DNA of 64,000 nucleotides, from positions 42,148 through 106,147 of the forward strand of contig JAQWTK010000096.1 in NCBI GenBank assembly GCA_029242705.1, in the 5' to 3' direction. Each line of letters starts with the position of its first letter. Position 1 is the first letter of the stretch. The translations under genes were made by a program, and so were the position numbers. Shown in pieces: positions 4,425 through 47,295 of the stretch. The notes beneath the pieces were generated by a model. It saw only the letters and a list, made by a program, of their open reading frames with translations. It made no database searches and was not told where the DNA came from. Source of the DNA: Gammaproteobacteria bacterium (lineage in GTDB: Bacteria > Pseudomonadota > Gammaproteobacteria > Pseudomonadales > Pseudohongiellaceae).

Positions 4425-5519
4425 GTGGTAGACCAAGCGGAAACACCGCAAATACTTGATGAAATAGCTAAAGCTAGTTCAAAAGCAGACTTTCGTCCAA
4501 GGAATAAAAAAAATGCTAGACGTCGATTTATCATCGTTTCTGTATTTTTCTTAGTCATCATTGGTTTAGTTGGTTACTTGGGCTGGAGGCAAATCCATTT
4601 TCAGCAAAGTCTGGTTAATCTTGTGATTGAAAACCAAGAACTAAAAGCTGCTATCGAAAGCCAAGAATCTGAAATAGCGCTTATGCGAGAAGAGATTTTC
4701 CAGGCAGACACCACTCAAGAGGTGGATCAAAATTTAAAACTTGAACTAGAAAGATTAAGTCAACAATTCGACGACTTGCAATCTCAGCGAGTAACACAAA
4801 ATTATGAGCCTAATTTTGATTGGAAAATCTCTGAAGCGACATTTTATGTGAGAATGGCAAATCAAAAATTACAATTACAGGGGGATATTGCTGCAACTAT
4901 TACCTTGATTGAAAATGCGGACATTGCGTTAGTAGACTCTGGTAATAATAATGTATTTTTAATAAGGGAAGCTTTAGCCTCAAGTTTGGCTGAACTTCGC
5001 GGTGTCGAAGTGATCGATAGAGAGGGCATATTTATTAGGTTGGGATACATACGTAATCAAGTAGAGCAGATTAAATTATTAGGAGAGCAGAGAGGAAATT
5101 TTAAAAATCAAGCCGCTAACAATTTAGCTATAGTAGATGGGGAAAATAACATGACAAACGTATTGAATCCCCTGTTCAATTTTTTTTCTTCTGCTTTCGT
5201 ATTTAGAAAATGGGAAGATAATTCAGAACTAATTTTTGCAGCAGGCCAACCTGACTTAATTAGACAAAATATATATATGATGTTGGAGCAAGCGAGGTTT
5301 GCTGTAATCGCGAAAAATAACTTGCTTTATCAGCAGAGTATAACAAGCAGTAAGAGGTGGCTTGAAAAATATGGAATGTCCGACCCTTCTCTCAGAGAGT
5401 CGATTATGGACGACATAGAAACTCTGGCATCAATCGATATTGATCCTCCGGCACCTAATCTTAATGAATCACTACGTTTAATAAATCAATTAAAACCTGT
5501 TGTTACATTTCCACGATGA
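4425..5519 (+). CDS. hemX: HemX-like membrane protein
   Basis: One N-terminal TM helix (FIIVSVFFLVIIGLVGYLGW) followed by a coiled-coil-rich region. Sits between hemD and hemY. GTG start. Confidence 0.7.
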   Translation: MVDQAETPQILDEIAKASSKADFRPRNKKNARRRFIIVSVFFLVIIGLVGYLGWRQIHFQQSLVNLVIENQELKAAIESQESEIALMREEIFQADTTQEVDQNLKLELERLSQQFDDLQSQRVTQNYEPNFDWKISEATFYVRMANQKLQLQGDIAATITLIENADIALVDSGNNNVFLIREALASSLAELRGVEVIDREGIFIRLGYIRNQVEQIKLLGEQRGNFKNQAANNLAIVDGENNMTNVLNPLFNFFSSAFVFRKWEDNSELIFAAGQPDLIRQNIYMMLEQARFAVIAKNNLLYQQSITSSKRWLEKYGMSDPSLRESIMDDIETLASIDIDPPAPNLNESLRLINQLKPVVTFPR

Positions 5520-6775
5520 TTCGCTTATTTTTGCTTAGCCTATTAACCATCGTTGGCGTACTTTGGTTAACTTTATATATTGGTTTTCCTGATGATCCAG
5601 GGTATTTATTGGTTGCTTTTGATAGTTATACGTTTGAAACAAGTTTGTTGGCTTTTTTAGTTGCCATTATTTTTGGATATATATTAATAAAGTTAGTTGC
5701 CTTGGCGCTCAAATCAGTAAATCCTCTCCGTTTTATAAGGCTTACGCGATCCATTAGTGATCGAATAAGGACTAAATCTAGAAGCGATACTTTAGAGGGG
5801 CTGCTCTATTTTGCTCGGGGTAATTGGCGGTCTAGTTATAATCTTTTAACTAAGAGCATTAATGACCAAGACGGAAGCGTCATTAATTTATTGGCAGCTA
5901 GTTATGCAGCGCATAAAGCTGAGGAAGAAGATGCTAGTATGAAATGTCTAGACGAAGCTGAAGCTAAGTATCCAGAAATAATTTCTACAATAAACCTAAT
6001 GAGAGCCAAACTTCTATATGAATCAGGGCATGCAGAGCAAGCCGCGCTAATATTGAAGGAGTTTAAAAATGCCTCACCAAATGATATAGGGCTCTTAAAA
6101 GTCTCTAAAGATGTATATGAAAAACTTGAAAACTGGAGTGCTTTGAAAAAGCTGATTCCTAAGCTCGAGAAATATAAAGCTATTAATTCGGAGGAGCTTG
6201 AAAAAATTCAAATGCGGATATTTGTAGAAGAGCTTTATCAAACAAGTGGAGAAGACGAAGATAAAAATGGAAGAGAGGCTCACTTAAATTTGAAAAAAGC
6301 ATGGAAAAAAGGACCTTTGAGATTTCGCGTTAATGAGAGAGTAGTTAATCATTATGCCAACCTGCTAATTAAATCAAATGCTAAGGACGATGCTTCTGTT
6401 GCTATAGAAAAAGCAATTTCAAAAGAATGGAGTAATTTATTAGTGAGCTCCTATGGCAAACTAGACTTTGCTAACTGTGAACAACAGTTGAAAGCAGCGG
6501 AGAAATGGCTGAAGAAAAGACCAGCTGATGCAAATCTATTATTAAGTCTTGGTCGAATTTCCATGAAAAATAAGCTCTGGGAAAAAGCAAAAAAGTATTT
6601 TGAAGAAAGTATACGGTTATCGCCTTCTGCCGAAGCTTATGGGGAATTGAACAGAATGCTTAAATATCTTAGTGAGGACGAGGTTAACGAAGAATTTTTG
6701 CGAAATTATACGGATTTTATTGACGGCCAATTACCCGAAATCTCTTTAGTCGATAGAAACGAAATCGTGCAGTAA
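5516..6775 (+). CDS. hemY: HemY-like membrane TPR protein
   Basis: Two N-terminal TM helices with a TPR-like remainder. ATGA start/stop overlap with hemX. Confidence 0.75.
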   Translation: MIRLFLLSLLTIVGVLWLTLYIGFPDDPGYLLVAFDSYTFETSLLAFLVAIIFGYILIKLVALALKSVNPLRFIRLTRSISDRIRTKSRSDTLEGLLYFARGNWRSSYNLLTKSINDQDGSVINLLAASYAAHKAEEEDASMKCLDEAEAKYPEIISTINLMRAKLLYESGHAEQAALILKEFKNASPNDIGLLKVSKDVYEKLENWSALKKLIPKLEKYKAINSEELEKIQMRIFVEELYQTSGEDEDKNGREAHLNLKKAWKKGPLRFRVNERVVNHYANLLIKSNAKDDASVAIEKAISKEWSNLLVSSYGKLDFANCEQQLKAAEKWLKKRPADANLLLSLGRISMKNKLWEKAKKYFEESIRLSPSAEAYGELNRMLKYLSEDEVNEEFLRNYTDFIDGQLPEISLVDRNEIVQ

Positions 6776-28651: not shown

Positions 28652-30199
28652 TTATAGTTTTTCTCTAGGGATGAGTTTGACTATTTGACCACCCGCATTG
28701 TGTTCAAACAGTAAATAAATGTCGCCGTTATAGCCTTGTTCGATATCCCTGACACGTCCGATTCCCTCGAATAATGTTTCTTTTTCAACGAAGCGATTAT
28801 TTTCAATATCGACGCGGAAAAGGCTGCGAGATTTTAACGAGCCAACAATAAAATCCCCATGCCAATTAGGAAAACTTTCGCTGTCGCTAATTATAAAACT
28901 CGAAACGGCGGGAGACGGAGTTAAATCAACTATTGGTTGCATAATATCTGATAATTCAAATGCAATACCGAGGCCGCGGCCATTTACTAGGCTTCCGTCA
29001 TAATGTAATCCCATTGAATGCAGAGGCCAACCATAATTTTCTGCGGGCAGTAATCGATTTATTTCATCGCCACCACGAGGCCCATGCTCACTCCCCCATA
29101 ATTCGTTATTAACTAGATCATATTCTAGTCCTTGAGGGCTCCGATGCCCCAAGGTATAGATACTTTCATATACGTTTTCTACTCCAACGTAAGGATTATC
29201 GCTGGGAATAGATCCATCGTCATTGACCCGATGTGTTTTCCCACATGGAGTCGTTAGGTCTTGAATTCCCCCGCCTTGACCTCCGCATTTCATGCCTAAT
29301 GTAAAATAAACATGCCCTCGATTATCAAAAGTAACTCGACCTCCAGCACCAACATCGCCAGCAAAAAAATAGTCTTTAAACCGTGCCTGCCAAATAATTT
29401 CTTGGTCTACCCAGGTTCCATCTTCTATTCGCCCACGAACGAGTCTGTTCATAGAGACTGCTCGTTGTTCGTTTCTGCTAGCTTCATTACATTCGTTGCA
29501 GCGGTGGCTATGATAAAGATACACCCAGCCGTTTTCCTCGTAATGGGGATGCAGCACAATATCAAATAGCCAACCCATTCCTCTTTCAATATCGATACGC
29601 GATTCGAGTCGATAGATGTCATCATATGCAGCCGGGGTACCTGTTATTAGTTCAGATTTCTCTCCAGTGGGACTAATAATACGGACGCCCTTAGTTTTTT
29701 CTGTGAGCAGAAGGCTGCCATCGGGTAAGGGAGCAATTGAAAATGGAAGTGGATCTAAATCTGAAGCAATAGACTGTAGCTGGAAATCATGTAGCGAAGT
29801 TTCAAAAACTTTGCGGGGAATTTCCATGGGAGCATCATAATTTGAAGTTACATAGCCGACATTCGCGCGAGTTTCGAGTATGTACATGGCCAAGCCGCGA
29901 ATTTCAATAGGAGATAAGAGGTCACGCCAGCTTGGCATGCCCGCTTCTATATAACCTTCGCTGATACTCGTAATAATATCACTTATAGATTGGCCATTGG
30001 CTAATTCGCCTCTCAAAGACGATCCCTGAGCAGCACCGGTTAGGTCTTCTCCATGACAGACCCCGCAGTTCTCTTGAAACATGAGACGAGATTCTGTTAC
30101 TCCAGAATACGCCTCCGCTTCATCTTGAGCGAAAGAATTGTTTGCGGTTAATAAACTTATAAGGGGGAGGAAAATCCTAAATAAGAGCTTTTTATACAT
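28652..30199 (-). CDS. Exported cytochrome c domain fused to a PQQ-dependent sugar (glucose/sorbosone) dehydrogenase beta-propeller
   Basis: Signal peptide, haem c motif CGVCHGED, then sGDH-family motifs GHRSPQGL and EHGPRGGDEIN. Confidence 0.8.
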   Translation of the reverse strand: MYKKLLFRIFLPLISLLTANNSFAQDEAEAYSGVTESRLMFQENCGVCHGEDLTGAAQGSSLRGELANGQSISDIITSISEGYIEAGMPSWRDLLSPIEIRGLAMYILETRANVGYVTSNYDAPMEIPRKVFETSLHDFQLQSIASDLDPLPFSIAPLPDGSLLLTEKTKGVRIISPTGEKSELITGTPAAYDDIYRLESRIDIERGMGWLFDIVLHPHYEENGWVYLYHSHRCNECNEASRNEQRAVSMNRLVRGRIEDGTWVDQEIIWQARFKDYFFAGDVGAGGRVTFDNRGHVYFTLGMKCGGQGGGIQDLTTPCGKTHRVNDDGSIPSDNPYVGVENVYESIYTLGHRSPQGLEYDLVNNELWGSEHGPRGGDEINRLLPAENYGWPLHSMGLHYDGSLVNGRGLGIAFELSDIMQPIVDLTPSPAVSSFIISDSESFPNWHGDFIVGSLKSRSLFRVDIENNRFVEKETLFEGIGRVRDIEQGYNGDIYLLFEHNAGGQIVKLIPREKL

Positions 30200-32201: not shown

Positions 32202-33272
32202 ATGAGATTCTCTACAAAATTATTTGTGAGCCTGAGTTTATTTGTGACAGGGACATTAGTCTTTGCACAAAATAATATTGGGCCAGTTAATGATTTACCA
32301 AACCCTTATCAAATCGTTACCGGATTTTTTAACATTCCAGCAGGTCGAGAATGGGGCGCGTCGAGCTCGATTGATGTTGATCCCGATGGTAAGTCGATTT
32401 GGATAGCCGAGCGTTGTGGTTCTGATTCCATAAGGGCGCAATACCCAATTAGGGGATGTGCGGAGTCTGATTTACCGGTTGTACTAAAATTCAATTCGGA
32501 TGGTGAGCTTGTCAGGAGCTTTGGTGGTGGGATCTTTGCGGTGCCCCATGGTTTTCACGTTGATCATGCTGGTAATATCTGGGTAACTGATGCTCCATTT
32601 ACTCTGCCGCCCGGTGTCGAGGGGAAGGGCCACATTGTGGTGAAATTTTCACCTGAAGGGGACCGCTTGCTAACACTAGGCGAGCCCGGTGTTACGGGTA
32701 GTGATGAAAATCATTTCAATATGCCTTCTGATGTTCATGTGTCACCAAATGGTGATATTTTCGTTGCTGATGGTCATGGCGGGGATAGCAATGGACGTAT
32801 TGTTAAATTTGATGCTCAAGGAAATTACTTGATGGAATGGGGCGAGCCTGGTACAGGCCCAGGTGAATTCGATGCGCCGCATGGGCTGGCTATGGACTCT
32901 CAAGGAAGGTTATTTGTTTCAGACCGTGGCAATAACCGTATACAAATATTTAATCAAAACGGAAGCTTGCTAGATACCTGGCAACAGTTTAGTCGGAATA
33001 GTGGTATTTATATTGATCGAAATGACATTCTTTATGCCGTAGATTCGGAATCAAACATCAGTCGTGGGCGCGGGGAATGGAGAAGAGGCATTCGAGTAGG
33101 TAGTGCGAGAACAGGAGAAGTACATTACTTCATTCCTGATCCGTTTGACGCTAACAATGGCCCCTATGCAGCCAGTTCAGGCGGCGAAGGTATAGTTGCG
33201 GACCATGATGGGATCATATATAGCGCAGAGGTTGGGCCGAGATCAATAAAGCGTTACTTTCGCTTTGAATAG
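32202..33272 (+). CDS. Exported NHL-repeat six-bladed propeller, peptidyl-alpha-hydroxyglycine lyase (PAL)-like
   Basis: Signal peptide and repeated NHL blades (PHGFHVDHAGNIWVTD; PSDVHVSPNGDIFVADGHG; PHGLAMDSQGRLFVSDRGNNRIQIF). Confidence 0.7.
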   Translation: MRFSTKLFVSLSLFVTGTLVFAQNNIGPVNDLPNPYQIVTGFFNIPAGREWGASSSIDVDPDGKSIWIAERCGSDSIRAQYPIRGCAESDLPVVLKFNSDGELVRSFGGGIFAVPHGFHVDHAGNIWVTDAPFTLPPGVEGKGHIVVKFSPEGDRLLTLGEPGVTGSDENHFNMPSDVHVSPNGDIFVADGHGGDSNGRIVKFDAQGNYLMEWGEPGTGPGEFDAPHGLAMDSQGRLFVSDRGNNRIQIFNQNGSLLDTWQQFSRNSGIYIDRNDILYAVDSESNISRGRGEWRRGIRVGSARTGEVHYFIPDPFDANNGPYAASSGGEGIVADHDGIIYSAEVGPRSIKRYFRFE

Positions 33273-35095: not shown

Positions 35096-36265
35096 TTAGG
35101 AAATTGTAATTGTCCGAGTAAATTGCGCATAGTTCTCCCAGCGACTAGCTTTTTCCGGCATTTCTTCCTCCGTTAGTTGCACATGCCCATTTATGTCAGT
35201 AGCGCGAGAGACAAGTGTGTGATCTCCGGGGGATGGATCCCAGTCCATAGTAAAAAGCTTCCATGAATAACGGGTTGATCTTGGATCTATAGTTGCTTCA
35301 CGCCAAGGTTCTCCATCGATCTTTATTTCGACATTACGAAGAGGCGTACCATCAGTTAACACAAACCCCGTTATTTTGTGCTGTGTGCCGAGACGCGTGA
35401 CACGAACAATGGCTGATTTTAATTGAATTTTGGTAACGGAATTTTCTACCCACCTCTCTTCTCCGCCAATCATTTCTTTCTTTAAGGTTACATAATCGCG
35501 GCCCATAAAACGGCCCATGTAACGTCTGTCTTGGATATGAATTTGCGTCAACCACTTAACATTTGCCACACCGTAATAACCCGGTACAACTAAACGTAGT
35601 GGGCGGCCATGCCCTTGTGGCAAATCTTCACCATTCATTTCGAGGGCTAGTATATTCTCTTCTCGCATCGCTTCCGCGACTGGTAGACTTCGAGCAAAAG
35701 ATTGCTCGACTTCGGTATCTCTGTTGGGAATTTCCTCAGTCCCGCTATCCGCGCCAAAAAATACTACTTCCGCACCGTCAGAATTGACTCCGCTTGCATT
35801 AAGAATGTCTCTCAGTCGAACTCCTTTCCAATTCGCATTGCCAACTAGACCTTGAAATCTACCGGTATTGTTTCCACCACATTCGAAACCAGCATCAATA
35901 TCGAACTGACTCATGTTTTGTAAATCTTCTAATGTGTATTCAAGCTCTTGATCTACTAACCCGGTTACCTTAAGCCTATAGTTATCTATATCCATCTCCG
36001 GCTGGCCATAATGTTGGACAACGTAGAAGTCCATATTGTCCGTATAGAAATCAGAAATCATTCTAGTATCTAACCAATGCGGTGCTCCTGGTCGAGCGGG
36101 GCCTCTGCTATAGTCTTCTGGCATATCACTAAATGATACTAGTTCTTCTCCTTGCGCTAAGGCAGGAAGTATCCAATGGGGCACGCTAGCCACTGCACTC
36201 GCCGAGACGCCTGCGCCGATTGTCTTCTTAATTGCCTCTCGTCTATTAATTTTTTCATCGTTCAT
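35096..36265 (-). CDS. Tat-exported sulfite-oxidase-fold (SorA-like) molybdopterin oxidoreductase
   Basis: Twin-arginine signal (NRREAIKK..ALAQ), Mo-ligand Cys context FECGGNN, PLRLVVPGYYGVANVKWL as in SorA, and a C-terminal Ig-like dimerisation domain. Confidence 0.8.
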   Translation of the reverse strand: MNDEKINRREAIKKTIGAGVSASAVASVPHWILPALAQGEELVSFSDMPEDYSRGPARPGAPHWLDTRMISDFYTDNMDFYVVQHYGQPEMDIDNYRLKVTGLVDQELEYTLEDLQNMSQFDIDAGFECGGNNTGRFQGLVGNANWKGVRLRDILNASGVNSDGAEVVFFGADSGTEEIPNRDTEVEQSFARSLPVAEAMREENILALEMNGEDLPQGHGRPLRLVVPGYYGVANVKWLTQIHIQDRRYMGRFMGRDYVTLKKEMIGGEERWVENSVTKIQLKSAIVRVTRLGTQHKITGFVLTDGTPLRNVEIKIDGEPWREATIDPRSTRYSWKLFTMDWDPSPGDHTLVSRATDINGHVQLTEEEMPEKASRWENYAQFTRTITIS

Positions 36266-36292: not shown

Positions 36293-36724
36293 TCAGTCTT
36301 TTGTATTTGAGAAATCGTAAGCTTTCCAATGGTCGGCCCGATATTGATTGGGGTCAGCTAAAACTTTAGATCGAGCCTTTGTAACTTCCTCAACTGTCAG
36401 TTTTTTGAAATCACTTGGAAGAGTTTTAGCATTGAACTCATCTAACATCCAATTCAATACATTAGTTAATTGCGCATTTGAAATCGGAGCATGCGCAGAA
36501 CCAGGCACTCTCGCTAAATAGCCTCGCATAGCTTCTACACTCATCATATAACCAAGTTCGTCGCGTAAGGTGGGGACATTGGGCGGGTTACCTTCGCCAA
36601 GTGGGCGATGGCATCCACTGCAATATAATAAATAATTTGTTCGCGGGCTAGCTGCAAAAACACTCGAGGTCAGGAGTGTGAAGACGACTGCTAAAAATGT
36701 AAGCCAAATCATCTTATCTTTCAT
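36293..36724 (-). CDS. Exported monohaem c-type cytochrome
   Basis: Signal peptide and a single CSGCH haem-binding motif. 143 aa. Lies between mauA and the molybdoenzyme on the same strand. Confidence 0.75.
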   Translation of the reverse strand: MKDKMIWLTFLAVVFTLLTSSVFAASPRTNYLLYCSGCHRPLGEGNPPNVPTLRDELGYMMSVEAMRGYLARVPGSAHAPISNAQLTNVLNWMLDEFNAKTLPSDFKKLTVEEVTKARSKVLADPNQYRADHWKAYDFSNTKD

Positions 36725-36728
36725 TGTT

Positions 36729-37265
36729 CTATTCGTCAGACGCGCCTATTACTAGAGAGACCGTACAGTGATAGCTAGTATTTTCTGTGCCAAAGCACCA
36801 GAGGACAGTACTGCTATTACTATTGAAATATACTGGTTTATCACCTTCAGTGTTGTGACAACTACAGCGAGCGCATACGGCTTTTCCACAACAATCGTTG
36901 TATGACATCAGGTAGTCCCGTCCGTCAACTGGATTAGTACAGGTTCCAACCCAAGTTATAGGCGAGGCCTCTGATCCAGGAGGGCAAGAAGTATAGGTCC
37001 CCCCGCAGCATGTGCAGAGTGTTCCGCTCATAGCGCAATAGCGCCAGTAATCGCAGCTTTGTGGATCGCCGATTTCTTCTATAGATTCTTGTGCAAACGA
37101 ACGAGACACTGGTAGTAATGGGAAGGAGGCTGCACCAGCGACGAACATACCCAGTCTGGAAAGGAAGTGCCTTCTTGACAACTTACGAGCCATAGTCAGG
37201 GTAGTGCGTCGAGCGTGATCATCTATCCAGTAGTATGCTTTATCGATTATTTTGTCTATTTTCAT
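36729..37265 (-). CDS. mauA: TTQ amine dehydrogenase small (light) subunit
   Basis: Tat-type leader (SRRHFLS), then QSCDYWRYC..CPPGS..ITWVGTC..YNDCCG..NTEG..PVY..VLWCFG..YHCT. This is collinear with Paracoccus MauA, including both TTQ Trp positions. Confidence 0.88.
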   Translation of the reverse strand: MKIDKIIDKAYYWIDDHARRTTLTMARKLSRRHFLSRLGMFVAGAASFPLLPVSRSFAQESIEEIGDPQSCDYWRYCAMSGTLCTCCGGTYTSCPPGSEASPITWVGTCTNPVDGRDYLMSYNDCCGKAVCARCSCHNTEGDKPVYFNSNSSTVLWCFGTENTSYHCTVSLVIGASDE

Positions 37266-37936
37266 GACGTCTGTTCCACTGCTGATGTTTCGTATTTTGA
37301 GTCGACAGAGTCCAGTTGAGTACTAACATATTCTTGTACAGTAGCTACACCAGTATCCATGGACTCGATTAAACTTTCTAGATGCTCTCTTGTATTGACG
37401 AGGCCTTTGCTTTTTAAGGTCCCGTCAGGTCCGATTAGTACGGCAAACGGAAGTTTACTCACTTGATAATACATACCCACGGATTGAGATACAAAATAAG
37501 GATAGGTCTCTATCTTTAAATCTTTAATATAAGTTTTGTGTTGTTCGATATCTTCGCCATCACTACCGAATGCCAAGCTCAATCGGTTATTCTCAGATTT
37601 TGCTAAGGATTTTGCAGTTGGCACTAGGGTCTTGCATACTGGGCAAGTTGGCGAAATAAATAATATCAGAGACGCAAGATTTTCTTTATTGGCGCCACCA
37701 ATCGTAATAGTTTCGCCTTGCAATGAATTCGTTTGGATATCTTTTGTAATTTCGCCCACCTTTGGTCCCGTCGTTGGTTGTAAGGCTCCGGCTGGAGCGA
37801 CACGCTCATGAAGAATACCAACTTGCCGAGTTAGCGCGAATACGAGTACCGATAAAAAGACGACCATAATCCAAAGAATTATGGTCGAGACAAATAAGGC
37901 TTCAACCACTAACTTTTCTCCAGGAGTCAATAGCAT
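37262..37936 (-). CDS. mauD: MauD-like thioredoxin-fold accessory protein
   Basis: N-terminal TM anchor and the thioredoxin-like motif SPTCPVCK. Sits between mauE and mauA. ATGA overlap with mauA. Confidence 0.75.
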   Translation of the reverse strand: MLLTPGEKLVVEALFVSTIILWIMVVFLSVLVFALTRQVGILHERVAPAGALQPTTGPKVGEITKDIQTNSLQGETITIGGANKENLASLILFISPTCPVCKTLVPTAKSLAKSENNRLSLAFGSDGEDIEQHKTYIKDLKIETYPYFVSQSVGMYYQVSKLPFAVLIGPDGTLKSKGLVNTREHLESLIESMDTGVATVQEYVSTQLDSVDSKYETSAVEQTS

Positions 37937-38462
37937 TTCGATTGCTGAGCAATTGGTTGGTAGCTAGGTAAATAAACAAGATGCTTATCAAGCCTATAAA
38001 AATACTGAAATAATCCAACAAGCCCAGATCTCTCGTTGTAGAAGGAAATACCGCCATAAGCGCCACAATAATTAAAGTGAAATTTCTCAGAACTAAGCCG
38101 GTAGAAAGGCGCTGATTACCGTTATCTTTATTTCCCGCGAACGCAGCATAACTGCAGCCACAATCTATATAACTTCTTCCTTTGTAAAGATTAATTGAGA
38201 TCGCTATAACATAAATTGAGAGCACCAAAGCACTCAATAAAGGAACCAAGGCTAGGTTGTTAAACAACCAGCCAATCCCGAGGAACAATTCAGTTAAACC
38301 GATTCCGATAGCAAAAAAACCTACTCCTCTCGAGGGAAGCACCTTATATTCACTAACAATTTGTTGAAATTGTAAGCGGTTAGACAATTTATGAGCACCC
38401 CCAATCAAAAATAGGAGGCTGAAGGCTATCGATACTAGGGTTTGAATGGCAGGGTCTATCAT
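37902..38462 (-). CDS. mauE: MauE-like membrane accessory protein
   Basis: Hydrophobic protein with four or more TM segments, 186 aa. Sits between mauB and mauD, and its 3' end overlaps mauD. Confidence 0.7.
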   Translation of the reverse strand: MIDPAIQTLVSIAFSLLFLIGGAHKLSNRLQFQQIVSEYKVLPSRGVGFFAIGIGLTELFLGIGWLFNNLALVPLLSALVLSIYVIAISINLYKGRSYIDCGCSYAAFAGNKDNGNQRLSTGLVLRNFTLIIVALMAVFPSTTRDLGLLDYFSIFIGLISILFIYLATNQLLSNRNAIDSWRKVSG

Positions 38463-38474
38463 TGGTCATTTATC

Positions 38475-39575
38475 TCATAAATCTTCAAATGCAGTGGACC
38501 CCGGAATTTGTATTGACCGCTCATAGGACAAGCTGAGAGCGTCATACACATGGGAGCCTCCTTCATTATCTACTACTAAAAGCTTTGGATTATCTTCTTG
38601 TGTAACCAAGATACTATTAGCTGGTGCTTCCAATTCAATTTTGCTTATACGACGTTGTGTGTTCGAATCTAACACCCATATTTCGGTCCCAGGCTCATGG
38701 TGCGAATCTACTGGGCCGTCGTGCATTGCCACATAAATTAAGCCAGTATCATGATGCGCAGTAATAATTTCGTTTCGACCTCCTGGGCGCCAATTTGCCT
38801 CTGACTCCAGGCGAGGATTCCAACCTTCGTCGATTATTATCTCATCGTCATCTGTGGCGACATGAAAGATTGTGCCGGCATGGGTAATTAGAAACCATCC
38901 GTTTGCGCTAGACGCAACTCGATCAAATACAGCATCTTCAAGTACGCTAAAGAAAACTTCGCTGCGGACCCTATTTTCTTCGAAGCCGCTTAAATCTAGC
39001 TGGATCAATTGTAGGGTGCCATCGCCACATACTTGCAGAAAGTCATTGTCGGAAACAGGCATAATTACTGCGCAACCAGGGGTTGATGCTTCGTAGGTAA
39101 ATATTCGATCTTCTACATCAACTATCGTCACCGAGTGGCCAGGGTTCATATTAAGAACCGCCAAATGTCGGCCATTATTAAGCAGCCCTAGATGGCTTCG
39201 GACCTGCAACCTTGCCATGTAATTGGGAATTTCAATCTCTGCGACCGGCCTTAGGTTTTCGTAGTCATAAATAGCAATAATGTCTGTTCGTTCACCGTGC
39301 ACGCCTCGTGAGAGATAAGACTCAGCGGCATAAAATTCTTCTCGTGGGGGCCAAAAGGTTACCGCTGGAGTATATCGGGAGAGCGATAACATACCTTGCA
39401 TCTCTCCGTTTGTTGCATCGAAAATGTAGCCACCATTCCTGGTCGTGCCAATAAACCAGTTTTTGCCGCGTTCGGGCATGGTTTCGACGCTAATTTCTTC
39501 AGGGGTGATTTGTGCTATTCCTAGCGGTGAAATAAGCAACAGACCTGCAGCGAGTGGGGCGATAAAGCGCATCAA
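38475..39575 (-). CDS. mauB: TTQ amine dehydrogenase large (heavy) subunit, seven-bladed propeller
   Basis: Signal peptide. GERTDIIAIYDYENLRPVAEIEIP and NWRPGG segments parallel Paracoccus MauB ([30 protein letters not shown]). Confidence 0.85.
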   Translation of the reverse strand: MMRFIAPLAAGLLLISPLGIAQITPEEISVETMPERGKNWFIGTTRNGGYIFDATNGEMQGMLSLSRYTPAVTFWPPREEFYAAESYLSRGVHGERTDIIAIYDYENLRPVAEIEIPNYMARLQVRSHLGLLNNGRHLAVLNMNPGHSVTIVDVEDRIFTYEASTPGCAVIMPVSDNDFLQVCGDGTLQLIQLDLSGFEENRVRSEVFFSVLEDAVFDRVASSANGWFLITHAGTIFHVATDDDEIIIDEGWNPRLESEANWRPGGRNEIITAHHDTGLIYVAMHDGPVDSHHEPGTEIWVLDSNTQRRISKIELEAPANSILVTQEDNPKLLVVDNEGGSHVYDALSLSYERSIQIPGSTAFEDL

Positions 39576-39830: not shown

Positions 39831-40997
39831 ATGAATATTTCAGTGTCAGTAATTGAACGTAATCGTAACTCTTTCCGTTTTGGAGCGTTAATTAGCATCG
39901 TTCTATTCCTCTATATAGGAATTAATTATGGGTGGAGGCAGGGATCATTGTTCCTCGTTGGAATTTCAGCAGGTGCAGTGCTTTATCATGCCGCTTTTGG
40001 TTTCACCTCAGCTTGGAGGGAAGTTGTTAATACCGGCAGAGGTGCAGGCCTTAGAGCCCAAATGATTATGCTCGCATGTACGGTATTGGTCTTTACGCCG
40101 TTAATAGCGCAGGGCGAATTATTTGGAATGGGTCTGAGAGGATCTGTGGCTCCACTAAATATAGCGGTTATTGCTGGCGCATTTATGTTTGGTGTTGGAA
40201 TGCAGCTCGGTGGAGGCTGTGCATCGGGTACTTTGTATACGGTTGGTGGCGGTAATAGTCGTATGCTTATAACGTTAGCAGCTTTTATAGCCGGATCCCT
40301 TTTGGGAACTTGGCAGTGGCAACTATGGCAAGGGATGCCGGGAATTGAGCCAATAGCATTAACTCGAAATTTTGGTTTGTTCGGGGGGGTATTGATAAGC
40401 TTTTTTCTATTCGCGGCCGTGTGGTATGCGACGATTATTTATGAACGAAGCCGTCACTCAGAGCTAGTTAACGAGGCTCGGTCAGACTTTTCTGTTTTAC
40501 GCGGTCCTTGGCCATTGCTTGCTGGAGCTTTTGCTCTGGTGCTAGTTCAAGTTGCCACATTGTTATTGGCAGGCCGGCCATGGGGTGTAACATCTGCATT
40601 TGCGCTTTGGGGAGCCAAGATTTCGGGGTTATTGGGCCTCGATGTTTCCGCATGGCCTTATTGGAGTCGTTCAGGGCCTTCTGCTTCTCTCGACCAGAGT
40701 ATATTCAGCGATATTACTTCAGTTATGAATATTGGAATAATACTTGGAGCCTTAGGTGCGGCGAGCTTGGCCAGGAAATTCTCGCCCTCTGCTAAGCTCC
40801 CGTTGGGCCAAATAATTGCCGCAATATTAGGCGGACTGTTGCTGGGCTATGGAGCCAGGATTGCCTTTGGCTGCAATATCGGCGCATATTTCAGCGGCAT
40901 CGGTTCGACTAGCTTACACGGATGGCTTTGGTTTATAGCCGCTTTTGTAGGGAGCACATTAGGCGCGCGAATTAGACCGAAATTTGGGTTGGGCTAG
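39831..40997 (+). CDS. YeeE/YedE-family sulfur/selenium-compound transporter
   Basis: Polytopic membrane protein with the two family Cys motifs LGGGCASGTLY and IAFGCNIGAYF. Confidence 0.8.
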   Translation: MNISVSVIERNRNSFRFGALISIVLFLYIGINYGWRQGSLFLVGISAGAVLYHAAFGFTSAWREVVNTGRGAGLRAQMIMLACTVLVFTPLIAQGELFGMGLRGSVAPLNIAVIAGAFMFGVGMQLGGGCASGTLYTVGGGNSRMLITLAAFIAGSLLGTWQWQLWQGMPGIEPIALTRNFGLFGGVLISFFLFAAVWYATIIYERSRHSELVNEARSDFSVLRGPWPLLAGAFALVLVQVATLLLAGRPWGVTSAFALWGAKISGLLGLDVSAWPYWSRSGPSASLDQSIFSDITSVMNIGIILGALGAASLARKFSPSAKLPLGQIIAAILGGLLLGYGARIAFGCNIGAYFSGIGSTSLHGWLWFIAAFVGSTLGARIRPKFGLG

Positions 40998-41068
40998 TCG
41001 TTAAGACCTAAAATATTTACTAAGAGATTTTAGTGCCTTACATAAACAAAAATAGAGTGCTTGTGATC

Positions 41069-42130
41069 ATGATAAAACTTATAACTATATTGCTCTCTGC
41101 TAGTTTAGTTTCTCCGGCCATTTTTGGACAGCAACCAGAATTCAAATTAGATGTTGATTGGCCGAAAATTCCTTTCAGTGATAATTGGTTAACTGGTGGG
41201 CTTGGAGGGATGTGTATCGATAATAGAGATCATGTGTATCTTCTAAATCGGCAAAATGTTGTTGCAGCTGATCTTGATGGAGCGCGATTGGCACCTCCTG
41301 TTATTGAATTAAACCCTCAAGGTGAGGTTGTGCGTGGATGGGGGGACCCTGAAGTTATTGGGCCGCGCGCGCATGACTGCCATGTTGAAGAGGATGGCAG
41401 CATCTGGATTGTTGCAGCAGGAACTGGGCATATCCAAAAATATTCAAATGATGGAAGCGAAATGTTAATGCAAATCGGTTTATCTGGGACATTTGACTCT
41501 TCTAATGGAACTCGAGAAGGGGCTCCCTTGAATTCTAATGCAGCGCAGTTTTTCTTGCCGTCGGCCTTAGACGTCGATGAGTTTTCTGGAGACATTTATG
41601 TGGCTGACGGCGAATTGCCGGGCGGAAATTCTAGAATAGCAGTGCTAGATAGGGATGGTAATTTTTTGCGACAGTGGGGGTTATATAGGACGGAATCAGA
41701 TGAAGATATTACGCCTTTGCCGCACTGCTTACGATTGTCGAATGATGGTTTGGTTTATGTATGTGATCGTGAGGCAGATAGGATTCAAGTATTTGATAGA
41801 CAGGGTAACTTTGTAAGGAATATCTTTGTGGGATTTGAGTCAGTTTCGCCCGCAGAAGGGCGCAGCAGTGGAAATAGAGGGTCGGCAGTAGTTCTTGCGT
41901 TTTCGCATGATCAAGAGCAGGAGCACATGTTCGTCATAAATCAAAACAGTGTAACGATTGAAGTTTTGGATCGGCAATCTGGTCGGACTATTACAGGGTT
42001 TGGAGATGGTCCGGGGCGCTATCGTGGACAGTTCACCCTGCCACATGGAATCGGAGTTGACTCTTTGGGTAACGTCTATATTGCGGAGCAAGAAGGCAGG
42101 CGTGTCCAGAAATATTTGCTAATAAGATAA
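41069..42130 (+). CDS. Exported NHL-repeat propeller (second PAL-like paralogue)
   Basis: Signal peptide MIKLITILLSASLVSPAIFGQ and NHL blades (PSALDVDEFSGDIYVADG; PHCLRLSNDGLVYVCDREADRIQVF; PHGIGVDSLGNVYIAEQEGRRVQKY). The track start at 41033 is GTG. Confidence 0.65.
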   Translation: MIKLITILLSASLVSPAIFGQQPEFKLDVDWPKIPFSDNWLTGGLGGMCIDNRDHVYLLNRQNVVAADLDGARLAPPVIELNPQGEVVRGWGDPEVIGPRAHDCHVEEDGSIWIVAAGTGHIQKYSNDGSEMLMQIGLSGTFDSSNGTREGAPLNSNAAQFFLPSALDVDEFSGDIYVADGELPGGNSRIAVLDRDGNFLRQWGLYRTESDEDITPLPHCLRLSNDGLVYVCDREADRIQVFDRQGNFVRNIFVGFESVSPAEGRSSGNRGSAVVLAFSHDQEQEHMFVINQNSVTIEVLDRQSGRTITGFGDGPGRYRGQFTLPHGIGVDSLGNVYIAEQEGRRVQKYLLIR

Positions 42131-45348: not shown

Positions 45349-47295
45349 ATGAGAAAAAGCATGTTGTTAATTTCTCACAAAACGCTATTTCAATTAGTTG
45401 TCCTCATTTTCTTAGTAACGATATCAAAAGTTTTTGCGACTGACTCTAACAATTATGACTGGAAACATTATGGGAATGATCTGGGCCATACTAAGTATGC
45501 ACCGCTAGACCAAATCAATCGCGAAAATGTTGCTAATTTACAAATTGAATGGAATTGGGAGTCTGTAGATAACCAAGCCGTAATAGAAAGGCCTCAATAT
45601 GTACCCTCCGGCTTTAAGGCTACACCCATAACTCGGGACGGTGTGCTTTATGTCAGTACGCCACTTGGCCATATTGCTGCCATAGATGCTCGTACAGGTG
45701 CTCAAAAATGGATATTTAATACTAATACCTGGGAGCATGGTAGACCCGCGAATAATGGGTTTAATCATCGCGGAGTAACCTTCTGGGAAAAACCTGGCCT
45801 GCTGGGTGCAGAACCGAGGATCATTATGACTACGGCTAATGCGTTTCTTTGGTCGATTGATGCAGAGACAGGCGAGCCGGATGAAAGTTTTGGAATAAAT
45901 GGTAAAACAGATCTAACGCTAGGGTTGGGGCGTGAAGTCGATAGGTCGATGATCGCTCACTCAGCCGCTGTGCCAATAATTGGTGATACGGTTATCGTGG
46001 GCTCCGTTGTTTATGATCAGCCAATGTTTGATATGGTGCCGGAGAAACTAACGGATCTACCACCAGGACATGTTAGGGGTTTCGATCTAAATACCGGTAA
46101 ACAAAAGTGGATTTTCCACACGATTCCTGAGCGAGGAGAATACGGTAATGCTACCTGGGAGGATGACTCTTGGAAAGTGACGGGTGCCGCTAATATTTGG
46201 ACAATGATTTCTGCCGATGAAGAGCTTGGATATGTGTATCTTCCTATTGGCAATCCAGGTAACGATTTTTATGGAGGTCAGAGATTAGGGGATAATTTAT
46301 TTGGCACCAGCTTAGTTGCGTTAAATGCAGAAACGGGAGAACGCGTTTGGCATTATCAGATCGTACATCATGAATTATGGGATTATGACCCGCCTGCTGC
46401 TCCAACGTTGGTAGATATAACGGTAAGTGGGAAGGACATCAAAGCAGTTGCGATGGTTTCCAAGCAAGCATTTATCTACATATTTGATCGTATTACTGGT
46501 AAACCAGTTTGGCCAATAGTCGAAAAACCTGTCCCTTCTAGCACAGTGCCGGGCGAGCGAGCTTCTTTTACACAACCTTTTCCGACCAGACCCGCCGCTT
46601 TTGACTTACAGGGTATTAATGAAGAGACGCTGATAGACTTTACTCCTGAGCTTAGGCAAGAAGCACTGGAAATAGTTAGTGAATTTGATCACGGCGGGTT
46701 ATATACACCGCCTTCTTTAAAAGGTGCGATTGCACTTCCAGGTTGGACAGGGGGTGCAGAATGGAGTGGCGCCGCTTTTGACCCAGAAACTTCTATGTAC
46801 TACATTCCATCGGTCACAAACCCAATTGTTATTCAACTCGCAGAAAACAACCCCAGCGAGACCGAATTTGCATATCGAAGAGATGGTGTGAGAACGATTA
46901 GCGGGCCTCAAGGATTGCCTTTAACAAAACCTCCCTATGGAAGAATTTCAGCCGTAAATTTAGATACTGGTGATTACGAATGGGTAAGACCTAATGCAGA
47001 AGGTATTCGCCAACGCATAATCGATTTGGGGATAGATGATCCTGGCCCCGTTGGTATTCCAATCGTGGCACCTCTATTGGTAACCAAAACATTATTATTT
47101 CAAGCCATAACCGACGGTGTCCCATTATTAAGGGCTATGGATAAAACCACAGGTGAAACAATTGCTGAGATAGAATTGCCAGGTATTCCGCAGGGCGCAC
47201 CTATGACTTACATGTTGGATGGGAAACAATATATTGCAATTACCTGCGGAGGCGGTGCGGACGCCAGATTGCTAGGGCTCGCTCTTCCTAATTAA
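45349..47295 (+). CDS. Exported PQQ-dependent dehydrogenase, eight-bladed propeller (glucose/quinate-type quinoprotein family)
   Basis: Signal peptide and a typical N-terminus WKHYGNDLGHTKYAPLDQINRENVANLQIEW. Repeated W-motif blades. 648 aa. Confidence 0.8.
   Translation: MRKSMLLISHKTLFQLVVLIFLVTISKVFATDSNNYDWKHYGNDLGHTKYAPLDQINRENVANLQIEWNWESVDNQAVIERPQYVPSGFKATPITRDGVLYVSTPLGHIAAIDARTGAQKWIFNTNTWEHGRPANNGFNHRGVTFWEKPGLLGAEPRIIMTTANAFLWSIDAETGEPDESFGINGKTDLTLGLGREVDRSMIAHSAAVPIIGDTVIVGSVVYDQPMFDMVPEKLTDLPPGHVRGFDLNTGKQKWIFHTIPERGEYGNATWEDDSWKVTGAANIWTMISADEELGYVYLPIGNPGNDFYGGQRLGDNLFGTSLVALNAETGERVWHYQIVHHELWDYDPPAAPTLVDITVSGKDIKAVAMVSKQAFIYIFDRITGKPVWPIVEKPVPSSTVPGERASFTQPFPTRPAAFDLQGINEETLIDFTPELRQEALEIVSEFDHGGLYTPPSLKGAIALPGWTGGAEWSGAAFDPETSMYYIPSVTNPIVIQLAENNPSETEFAYRRDGVRTISGPQGLPLTKPPYGRISAVNLDTGDYEWVRPNAEGIRQRIIDLGIDDPGPVGIPIVAPLLVTKTLLFQAITDGVPLLRAMDKTTGETIAEIELPGIPQGAPMTYMLDGKQYIAITCGGGADARLLGLALPN

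Follow-up and report, generated by a model that had tools for sequence, protein, structure and literature searches.

What does an enzyme with the fold of sulfite oxidases do when it lacks their central arginine, and why does its gene stand at the end of an operon for an amine dehydrogenase? The question is raised by a gene at positions 35096 to 36265 (minus strand) of a 64,000-nucleotide stretch, hereafter the window, from contig JAQWTK010000096.1 of the gammaproteobacterial assembly GCA_029242705.1 (Pseudohongiellaceae). Among the functional residues of sulfite oxidases, the central arginine is the best known, and its substitution by Gln causes human sulfite oxidase deficiency. What is new here is that a member of an arginine-less branch of the sulfite oxidase (SUOX) family is part of a conserved module with a tryptophan tryptophylquinone (TTQ) amine dehydrogenase and a sulfur transporter. 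Our favored reading, to which we give a probability of roughly 40%, is that the protein is a noncanonical S(IV) dehydrogenase and belongs to a periplasmic module by which a sulfur-bearing amine is processed.

The open reading frame (ORF) encodes 389 amino acids. Its boundaries had been given correctly in a first-pass annotation made from the sequence, and all motifs quoted there were found in the product. The sequence contains RREAIKK (residues 8 to 14), the AxA site ALA/QGE (residues 35 to 40), and FYVVQHY (residues 80 to 86). The sequence further contains FECGGNNTGRFQG at residues 127 to 139, with C129 as the molybdenum (Mo)–ligating cysteine, PLRLVVPGYYG (222 to 232), VKWL (236 to 239), and YMGRFMGRDYV (249 to 259). 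The twin-arginine codons R8-R9 (36239 to 36244, minus strand) belong to the twin-arginine translocation (Tat) motif N-R-R-E-A-I-K and are invariant in alignments A1 to A3. The sole Pfam domain found was PF00174 (Oxidored_molyb), which scored 160 bits against a gathering score of 24. Residues E128, C129, G131, N132, and R224 are invariant in HMMER and MAFFT alignments; the Mo-Cys, in the motif [FLI]EC[SAG]GN, and the motif PLRL..PG that binds the Mo cofactor are thus in place. An AlphaFold2 model built on 65 sequences (mean pLDDT of 84.5) matched SorA in Foldseek with a TM score of 0.72 across 385 columns and both domains. TM scores of ~0.7 over ~385 columns, again covering both domains, were obtained for SoxC (0.70) and for the Thermus, chicken, and plant sulfite oxidases. 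The dimerization domain claimed in the first-pass annotation, which is Ig-like in this fold, is therefore supported by the two-domain model, although the Pfam model for it, PF03404, was not significant for the protein itself; this model reached 25 bits in a 58% identical paralogue from the same genome.

In phmmer searches against the PDB, SorA of Starkeya novella (2BLF) came out on top (E ~1e-32), the single best match being the SorA R55M mutant. The HMMER alignment to 2BLF and 2CA3 placed F-F-V-R55-Y-H57 of SorA opposite F-Y-V-V83-Q84-H85 with high posterior probability (codons of V83-Q84-H85 at 36011 to 36019, minus strand). In the same alignment, C129, H85, and Y258 corresponded to C104, H57, and Y236 of SorA, so the active-site His and Tyr are both retained, the latter in R256-D257-Y258 (35492 to 35500, minus strand) within the motif RFMxRDYV. 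The protein is thus a periplasmic, Tat-exported SUOX-fold molybdopterin oxidoreductase whose Mo-Cys/His/Tyr core is intact. A MAFFT alignment that included the Arg-bearing paralogues of the same genome (MFVRNN, and HFERHH in SoxC) again put Val83 in the arginine column. Proper gap placement, which had been named beforehand as what might bring the arginine back, left Val83 opposite Arg55. The substitution suspected in the first-pass annotation is therefore real and, as described below, conserved in the clade.

We take Arg55 of SorA to be equivalent to R78 of SorT, R138 of the chicken enzyme, and R160 of the human enzyme, in agreement with the titles of mutant entries in the PDB, and Arg109, at position Mo-Cys+5, to be equivalent to chicken R190. 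Bailey and co-workers are said to have found in 2009 that the sulfite Km is orders of magnitude higher in SorA variants with substitutions at Arg55. The human R160Q enzyme has <5% activity, Arg160 lying within the active site (PMC10574614). In SorT of Sinorhizobium meliloti, Arg78 is an active-site residue that forms a salt bridge with a heme propionate of SorU and carries the dominant tunneling path (PMC4760952).

The substitution is not confined to the window. The pattern FY[VLI][VI]QHY is present in 119 of the 120 best database homologues, the remaining one keeping the Val (FYVVLHY), and it is intact in 78 of the 80 GTDB loci that were recovered with a clade profile; two loci gave no pattern match, one of them carrying X residues. 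Judging by these sequences, Val, Ile, or Leu at position 83 is a character of the clade and not a chance event. The second pocket arginine behaves differently, and here the earlier claim of loss or displacement holds in part: while the Arg55 equivalent is replaced, loss of the Arg109 equivalent is not demonstrated. SorA C104-S-G-N-S-R109-G lies opposite C129-G-G-N-N-T134-G, which pairs R109 with T134; Arg136 follows two residues on, and a 10-residue gap in the query comes next (shortened loop C-G-G-N-N-T134-G-R136, 35858 to 35881, minus strand). When the 80 GTDB loci, the window’s protein, and its own-genome paralogue were counted, the loop arginine was found at Cys+4 in 31 sequences, at +5 in 2, at both +5 and +6 in 9, at +6 in 16, and at +7 in 10, including the window’s protein; 13 sequences had none, and one locus gave no pattern match. 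Because its place varies so widely in a shortened loop, we consider the second arginine displaced rather than demonstrably lost. The loops without any arginine account for 13 of the 61 clade members outside the group linked to the amine dehydrogenase.

When 1.84 billion cluster representatives were searched exhaustively with HMMER, only 267 clusters reached E ≤ 1e-30. Beyond the clade, the nearest representatives, among them metagenome-assembled genomes of Planctomycetaceae, were 37 to 45% identical and bore generic names at most. Like the clade, they have the short loop and RFMxRDYV, with V, I, L, A, or T in the arginine column. The canonical F[FY]VRNH and the long CAGNGR loop were confined to more distant matches. 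Since the nearest relatives are Arg-less and the canonical motif appears only further off, the protein belongs to a deep, uncharacterized Arg-less branch of the family. Genomes of common marine Gammaproteobacteria encode as many as three paralogues of this branch, to which other phyla contribute further members. Neighborhoods of the paralogues not linked to the amine dehydrogenase included DNA polymerase II/ACT/HAD synteny, DUF169, a luciferase-like monooxygenase with a glyoxalase, and one cytochrome c, and gave no pointer to function; nor did the neighborhoods of two distant Arg-less relatives. The cytochrome adjoining one nonlinked paralogue (L005) is marginally similar to the cytochrome of the window’s operon (28% over 87 amino acids). 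On a Planctomycetaceae contig, a distant Arg-less SUOX is preceded by a protein (L109, 5254 to 5979, plus strand) that weakly matches cupredoxins and may be another kind of electron acceptor for this branch.

The main rival to our reading is that the protein is still a sulfite dehydrogenase: the product of the TTQ enzyme would release sulfite, the Mo enzyme would detoxify it, and Arg68, Arg136 or the Cys+4 arginine, and Arg256 would stand in for Arg55 and Arg109. Hypotaurine is one example of such an amine: its deamination product, sulfinoacetaldehyde, should, like β-sulfinylpyruvate, release SO2 spontaneously. Consistent with this alternative, the Mo-Cys, His, and Tyr are kept, SorA is the best match in both sequence and fold, and most clade members retain one loop arginine. 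Arg68, a candidate relocated pocket arginine in LDTR 15 residues before V83 (36062 to 36064, minus strand), is invariant across the clade together with Arg256 (alignment A2); in the deeper Arg-less branch, it is part of D-x-R in some members and replaced by W-E in the rest. Against it, the arginine vital to the human and bacterial enzymes is missing throughout the clade and in the deeper branch, and 13 clade members have no loop arginine. The curated NCBIfam hidden Markov models (HMMs) for SorA (NF052245), SoxC (TIGR04555), and SorT (NF052247) scored 173, 150, and 145 bits, respectively, three- to fourfold below their cut-offs of 600, 420, and 570. Overall, we regard this alternative as possible but doubtful.

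The rest of the genome bears on the same question. The assembly is 2.46 Mb long and 90% complete, and its relatives are labeled Pseudohongiellaceae, Pseudohongiella, or OM182. It encodes six PF00174 proteins, on contigs C9, C73 (two genes), C81 (two genes), and C85 (loci L010 to L015). The 58% identical paralogue mentioned above, also Arg-less, lies in housekeeping synteny at 5968 to 7143 of C81, 71 kb from the molybdoenzyme gene. A true SoxC (522 bits against the cut-off of 420) is followed by a cytochrome c gene, as is a SoxC-like protein (L010) in which the ERHH arginine is missing and the sequence reads FYMGTTRG. A SorA-like protein keeps the arginine and is followed by an unannotated 134–amino acid ORF; the sixth protein is MsrP-like. 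With SoxC, SoxC-like, and SorA-like genes, two of them paired with cytochromes, the genome already has canonical sulfite-oxidizing capacity, a further point against a sulfite dehydrogenase at the window’s locus. The genome has a single TTQ light chain and a single cupredoxin.

Comparison with characterized family members shows how far the protein has diverged. SorAB of S. novella resembles it most, having a periplasmic, Tat-exported enzyme with Mo and dimerization-type domains. In contrast to SorA, with which it shares ~27% identity, the window’s protein has Val83 for Arg55, Gln84 for Tyr56, Thr134 opposite Arg109, and a loop after the Mo-Cys that is 10 residues shorter. No SorB-type subunit is encoded at the locus; the adjoining cytochrome gene lies upstream and is a core gene of the amine dehydrogenase. 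In SorT/SorU of S. meliloti (4PW3), the SUOX-fold enzyme is likewise periplasmic, and a small cytochrome c, encoded as a separate protein, is its acceptor; the system is tied to the degradation of an organosulfonate, taurine (PMC4760952), but Arg78 of SorT, on the electron path, is a Val in the window’s protein. SoxCD (2XTS) shares the two-domain SUOX fold; however, SoxC retains the HFERHH arginine, and no SoxD-type subunit was found at the locus.

MsrP (YedY) is a Tat-exported SUOX-fold Mo enzyme with a substrate other than sulfite, and homologues of the window’s protein bear the automatic JGI name “YedYZ catalytic subunit.” It thus offers the model for another explanation, in which the protein works in the reductive direction, like MsrP/YedY and nitrate reductase within this fold: amine electrons would pass through the TTQ enzyme and the operon cytochrome to a neutral S- or N-oxide, for example, a sulfoxide. 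MsrP, which acts on neutral sulfoxides, is not known to have an anion pocket rich in Arg like that of the sulfite oxidases, and the loss of the arginine along with the gain of a hydrophobic Val would suit an uncharged substrate. An arginine of the cytochrome, Arg40, that covaries with the presence of SUOX (see below) counts in its favor as well. However, the MsrP model (NF003767) scored just 54 bits against a cut-off of 207, and the dimerization-type domain, which MsrP lacks, and the RDY tyrosine are typical of oxidizing enzymes. The operon has no gene for an MsrQ/YedZ-like partner, and the YeeE-type anion transporter next to it would be left unexplained. We therefore consider a reductase improbable.

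The molybdoenzyme gene closes a tight series of six minus-strand genes, arranged in the order heavy chain, MauE, MauD, light chain, cytochrome, and SUOX. Intergenic distances range from −35 to +27 nt (27 nt between cytochrome and SUOX), a spacing that fits a single transcript; promoter and terminator scans at the operon gave no signal above the shuffle background. The heavy chain, a β-propeller (38475 to 39575; PF06433), has a one-residue insertion, Arg267, and is closer to the α subunit of aromatic amine dehydrogenase (AADH; 126 bits) than to that of methylamine dehydrogenase (MADH; 83 bits). It is followed by a MauE-like membrane accessory protein (37902 to 38462; PF07291, 67 bits) and a MauD-like accessory protein of thioredoxin fold (37262 to 37936; TIGR02661, 180 bits against a cut-off of 188.6). 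The light chain (36729 to 37265; PF02975, 163 bits) is AADH-like and has both TTQ tryptophans. Its 14-Cys pattern, with seemingly extra cysteines, is that of AADH, since the sequence aligns without gaps to the AADH β subunit (2AGL_D). The fifth gene (36293 to 36724) encodes an exported monoheme c-type cytochrome of 143 amino acids (CSGCH) that gave no Pfam match and weakly resembled Thermus cytochrome c552 (E ~1e-5). The TTQ amine dehydrogenase and the cytochrome c reported upstream in the first-pass annotation are thus both present, with the correction that the TTQ enzyme is nearer to AADH than to MADH.

Divergent from the operon across 255 nt lies a plus-strand gene (39831 to 40997) for a sulfur-compound transporter of the YeeE/YedE family (PF04143, 220 bits). 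An exported NHL-repeat β-propeller (41033 to 42130, plus strand; PF01436, with a signal peptide read from the sequence) is encoded 3′ of it. Genes for such propellers occur within 10 kb in most linked loci and also beside two operons that have no SUOX (L144 and L145); the association may therefore reflect synteny only, and membership in the module is uncertain. The region is flanked by a second NHL-repeat paralogue (32202 to 33272, plus strand). The window is rich in periplasmic respiratory dehydrogenases at this point, also encoding a fusion of cytochrome c with soluble glucose dehydrogenase of the pyrroloquinoline quinone (PQQ) type (28652 to 30199, minus strand) and a propeller of the PQQ alcohol/glucose dehydrogenase type (45349 to 47295, plus strand; 618 bits).

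To our understanding of work by Chistoserdov from 2001, the aau operon of Alcaligenes faecalis has the order aauBEDA-orf2 (heavy chain, MauE, MauD, light chain, small cytochrome). The window’s operon follows the same order and, presumably like the A. faecalis cluster, has no mauG. The A. faecalis enzyme (2AGL and related entries) also matches it in the gap-free light chain. In contrast to A. faecalis, the window’s operon adds SUOX and the divergent YeeE-like gene, its heavy chain is distant, and the host is a marine Pseudohongiellaceae-type gammaproteobacterium.

Whether the linkage is more than a local accident was assessed in a gene-neighborhood survey of the 80 GTDB loci, as the first-pass annotation had proposed. 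At all 20 assessable loci whose SUOX is at least 74% identical to the window’s protein, the genes cytochrome-mauA-mauD-mauE-mauB lie directly upstream in the same order. The YeeE-like gene is divergent from mauB in 19 of the 20 linked loci, all of which stem from metagenome-assembled or single-cell genomes. At the 59 loci with a SUOX below 72% identity, none of these genes, YeeE included, was found. Four metagenome contigs with differing flanks have the same arrangement as the linked loci. The linked SUOX proteins grouped in a single clade of a maximum-likelihood tree (SH-aLRT of 98), its lone “unlinked” member being encoded on a contig that starts inside the gene. The heavy chains linked to SUOX also form one clade, which is nested among heavy chains from SUOX-less operons (SH-aLRT of 90). 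The linkage is thus conserved and of single origin. Full-text literature searches returned no description that links TTQ dehydrogenases with SUOX-family enzymes, in line with the annotation’s remark that it was undescribed. The two trees do not fully agree: the window’s SUOX is nearest to those of loci L018 and L019 (93 to 94% identity), while its heavy chain is nearest to the group of L020 to L023 and L057 (82%), with L018 and L019 elsewhere. The mismatch suggests that recombination between lineages may have occurred within the operon.

SUOX-less operons of the aau type provide the counterpart to the linked loci. TTQ light chains were detected in 101 of 200 genomes of the family and in 69 of the 82 genomes of the same genus; SUOX was absent at all 30 loci sampled in this survey. 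When 12 SUOX-less loci were extended to 12 kb, neither SUOX nor YeeE was found, and the light chains were up to 86% identical to that of the window. The 15 SUOX-less operons that were examined in full all lack YeeE as well, among them L144 and L145, which have the NHL...SIR2 synteny of the window. By these gene contents, the gain or loss of SUOX goes together with that of YeeE. In L144, from the same genus, a gene of the Asp/Asn β-hydroxylase family (cupin; 4729 to 5427, minus strand) fills the slot after the cytochrome. This suggests that the “sixth gene” of these aau-type operons may be variable.

Only two sequence features track the presence of SUOX. One is the Arg267 insertion in the heavy chain (PGG-R267-NE), found in 19 of 20 linked and 0 of 15 unlinked operons; the other is Arg40 of the cytochrome, immediately after CSGCH (18 of 20 versus 0 of 15). 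Two further candidates were rejected. Heavy-chain Arg67, beside the equivalent of MADH αPhe55, is also an Arg in close SUOX-less operons of the 15-operon set, and a light-chain identity of at least ~78% fails as a predictor, since SUOX-less operons reach 86%.

The cytochrome could be thought of as a SorB-like partner of SUOX. This was ruled out, as aau-type TTQ operons conserve it as their fifth gene even where SUOX is lacking, including three distant examples with the same ~140–amino acid protein; it therefore belongs to the amine dehydrogenase core. A complex prediction for the mature SUOX and the mature cytochrome c with heme, run without controls, gave ipSAE values of 0.00 to 0.01, which speak neither for nor against an interaction. 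The aau-type cytochromes have no invariant Met or second His (alignment A4), and their heme may be five-coordinate. Since aau-type operons do without MauG, the cytochrome might serve TTQ biogenesis instead of, or besides, electron transfer.

A role in TTQ maturation could also be considered for the molybdoenzyme itself, which would add water-derived oxygen to the light-chain tryptophan in an operon without MauG. We know of no enzyme to which the first Trp hydroxylation in TTQ has been assigned, and the operon contains no mauG; the one distant MauG/MbnH-like diheme protein elsewhere in the genome scored 132 bits against a cut-off of 444. However, close aau-type operons manage without SUOX, both at the 30 sampled family loci and in the 15 operons examined in full. 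Arg-less SUOX paralogues, for their part, occur in genomes and loci that have no TTQ genes. Such a role is thus highly improbable.

Finally, there may be no functional link at all, with a SUOX gene having landed 3′ of the operon and been inherited by descent. The slot after the cytochrome is variable, holding the hydroxylase-family gene in L144 and nothing in others, and the linked loci, all coming from one family, are not independent. On the other hand, the linkage is held down to 74% SUOX identity and in at least four flanking contexts, the gap to the cytochrome is merely 27 nt, and the gain of SUOX coincides with that of YeeE, the heavy-chain arginine insertion, and Arg40 of the cytochrome. 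We thus assign a low likelihood to a chance association.

According to the reading that we favor, in one Pseudohongiellaceae-type marine sublineage, an Arg-less SUOX copy would have been added to an AADH-type TTQ operon, and the YeeE-like transporter and the one-residue heavy-chain insertion would have arrived with it. The substrate of the module would be a sulfur-bearing primary amine, e.g., an aminosulfinate or aminosulfonate similar to hypotaurine or taurine; an anionic amine would be in keeping with the inserted arginine of the heavy chain. The TTQ enzyme would deaminate the amine, and the Mo enzyme would oxidize a sulfur(IV) center of the substrate or the product by oxo transfer from Mo(VI). 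Electrons of both enzymes would pass to one or more c-type cytochromes, and the YeeE-like protein would carry a sulfur species across the inner membrane. With one guanidinium lost, Val and Gln gained, and the loop shortened, the preferred substrate is expected to carry less negative charge than free sulfite, as a monoanion would, or to be bulkier; an organosulfinate is an example.

Several points weigh against this reading. Arg68, Arg136 or the Cys+4 arginine, and Arg256 could rebuild the anion pocket, so sulfite could still be the substrate. A linked transporter of sulfur anions of the YeeE type would suit a sulfite dehydrogenase as well, and such enzymes are classically associated with organosulfonate degradation (PMC4760952 and PMC6527743). 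Arg-less paralogues of the clade occur in housekeeping synteny without an amine dehydrogenase; the basic substrate of the enzyme must therefore be generally available. All linked loci come from a single bacterial family, and their number overstates their independence. The classical route from taurine to sulfoacetaldehyde is unsupported, with no Xsc homologue above the cut-off in the 90% complete genome (best HMM score of 292 bits against 676). The proposed nature of the amine is drawn from gene association and one inserted arginine, and the activity proposed for the Mo enzyme derives from sequence and a predicted structure rather than from biochemistry.

A broader proposal appears to us rather unlikely, though worth stating: the Arg-less branch would oxidize organic S(IV) compounds, such as hypotaurine or methanesulfinate, to sulfonates, and the operon with YeeE would constitute a new periplasmic sulfur-amine pathway that feeds the respiratory chain in abundant marine Gammaproteobacteria (OM182/Pseudohongiellaceae).

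Genes for “methylamine utilization” have been listed for HTCC2089/Pseudohongiellaceae (PMC8371827); our results indicate that these are aau-type operons with a variable sixth gene and no MauG. They also show that a large natural branch of the SUOX family does without the central arginine of sulfite oxidases. As one group of its members is linked, by a single origin, to a TTQ dehydrogenase and a sulfur transporter, there is a concrete way to find the substrate of an Arg-less enzyme. The linkage of SUOX and amine dehydrogenase points to an undescribed route of sulfur-bearing amine oxidation and bears on the cycling of marine organic nitrogen and sulfur, as well as on the formation of TTQ without MauG.

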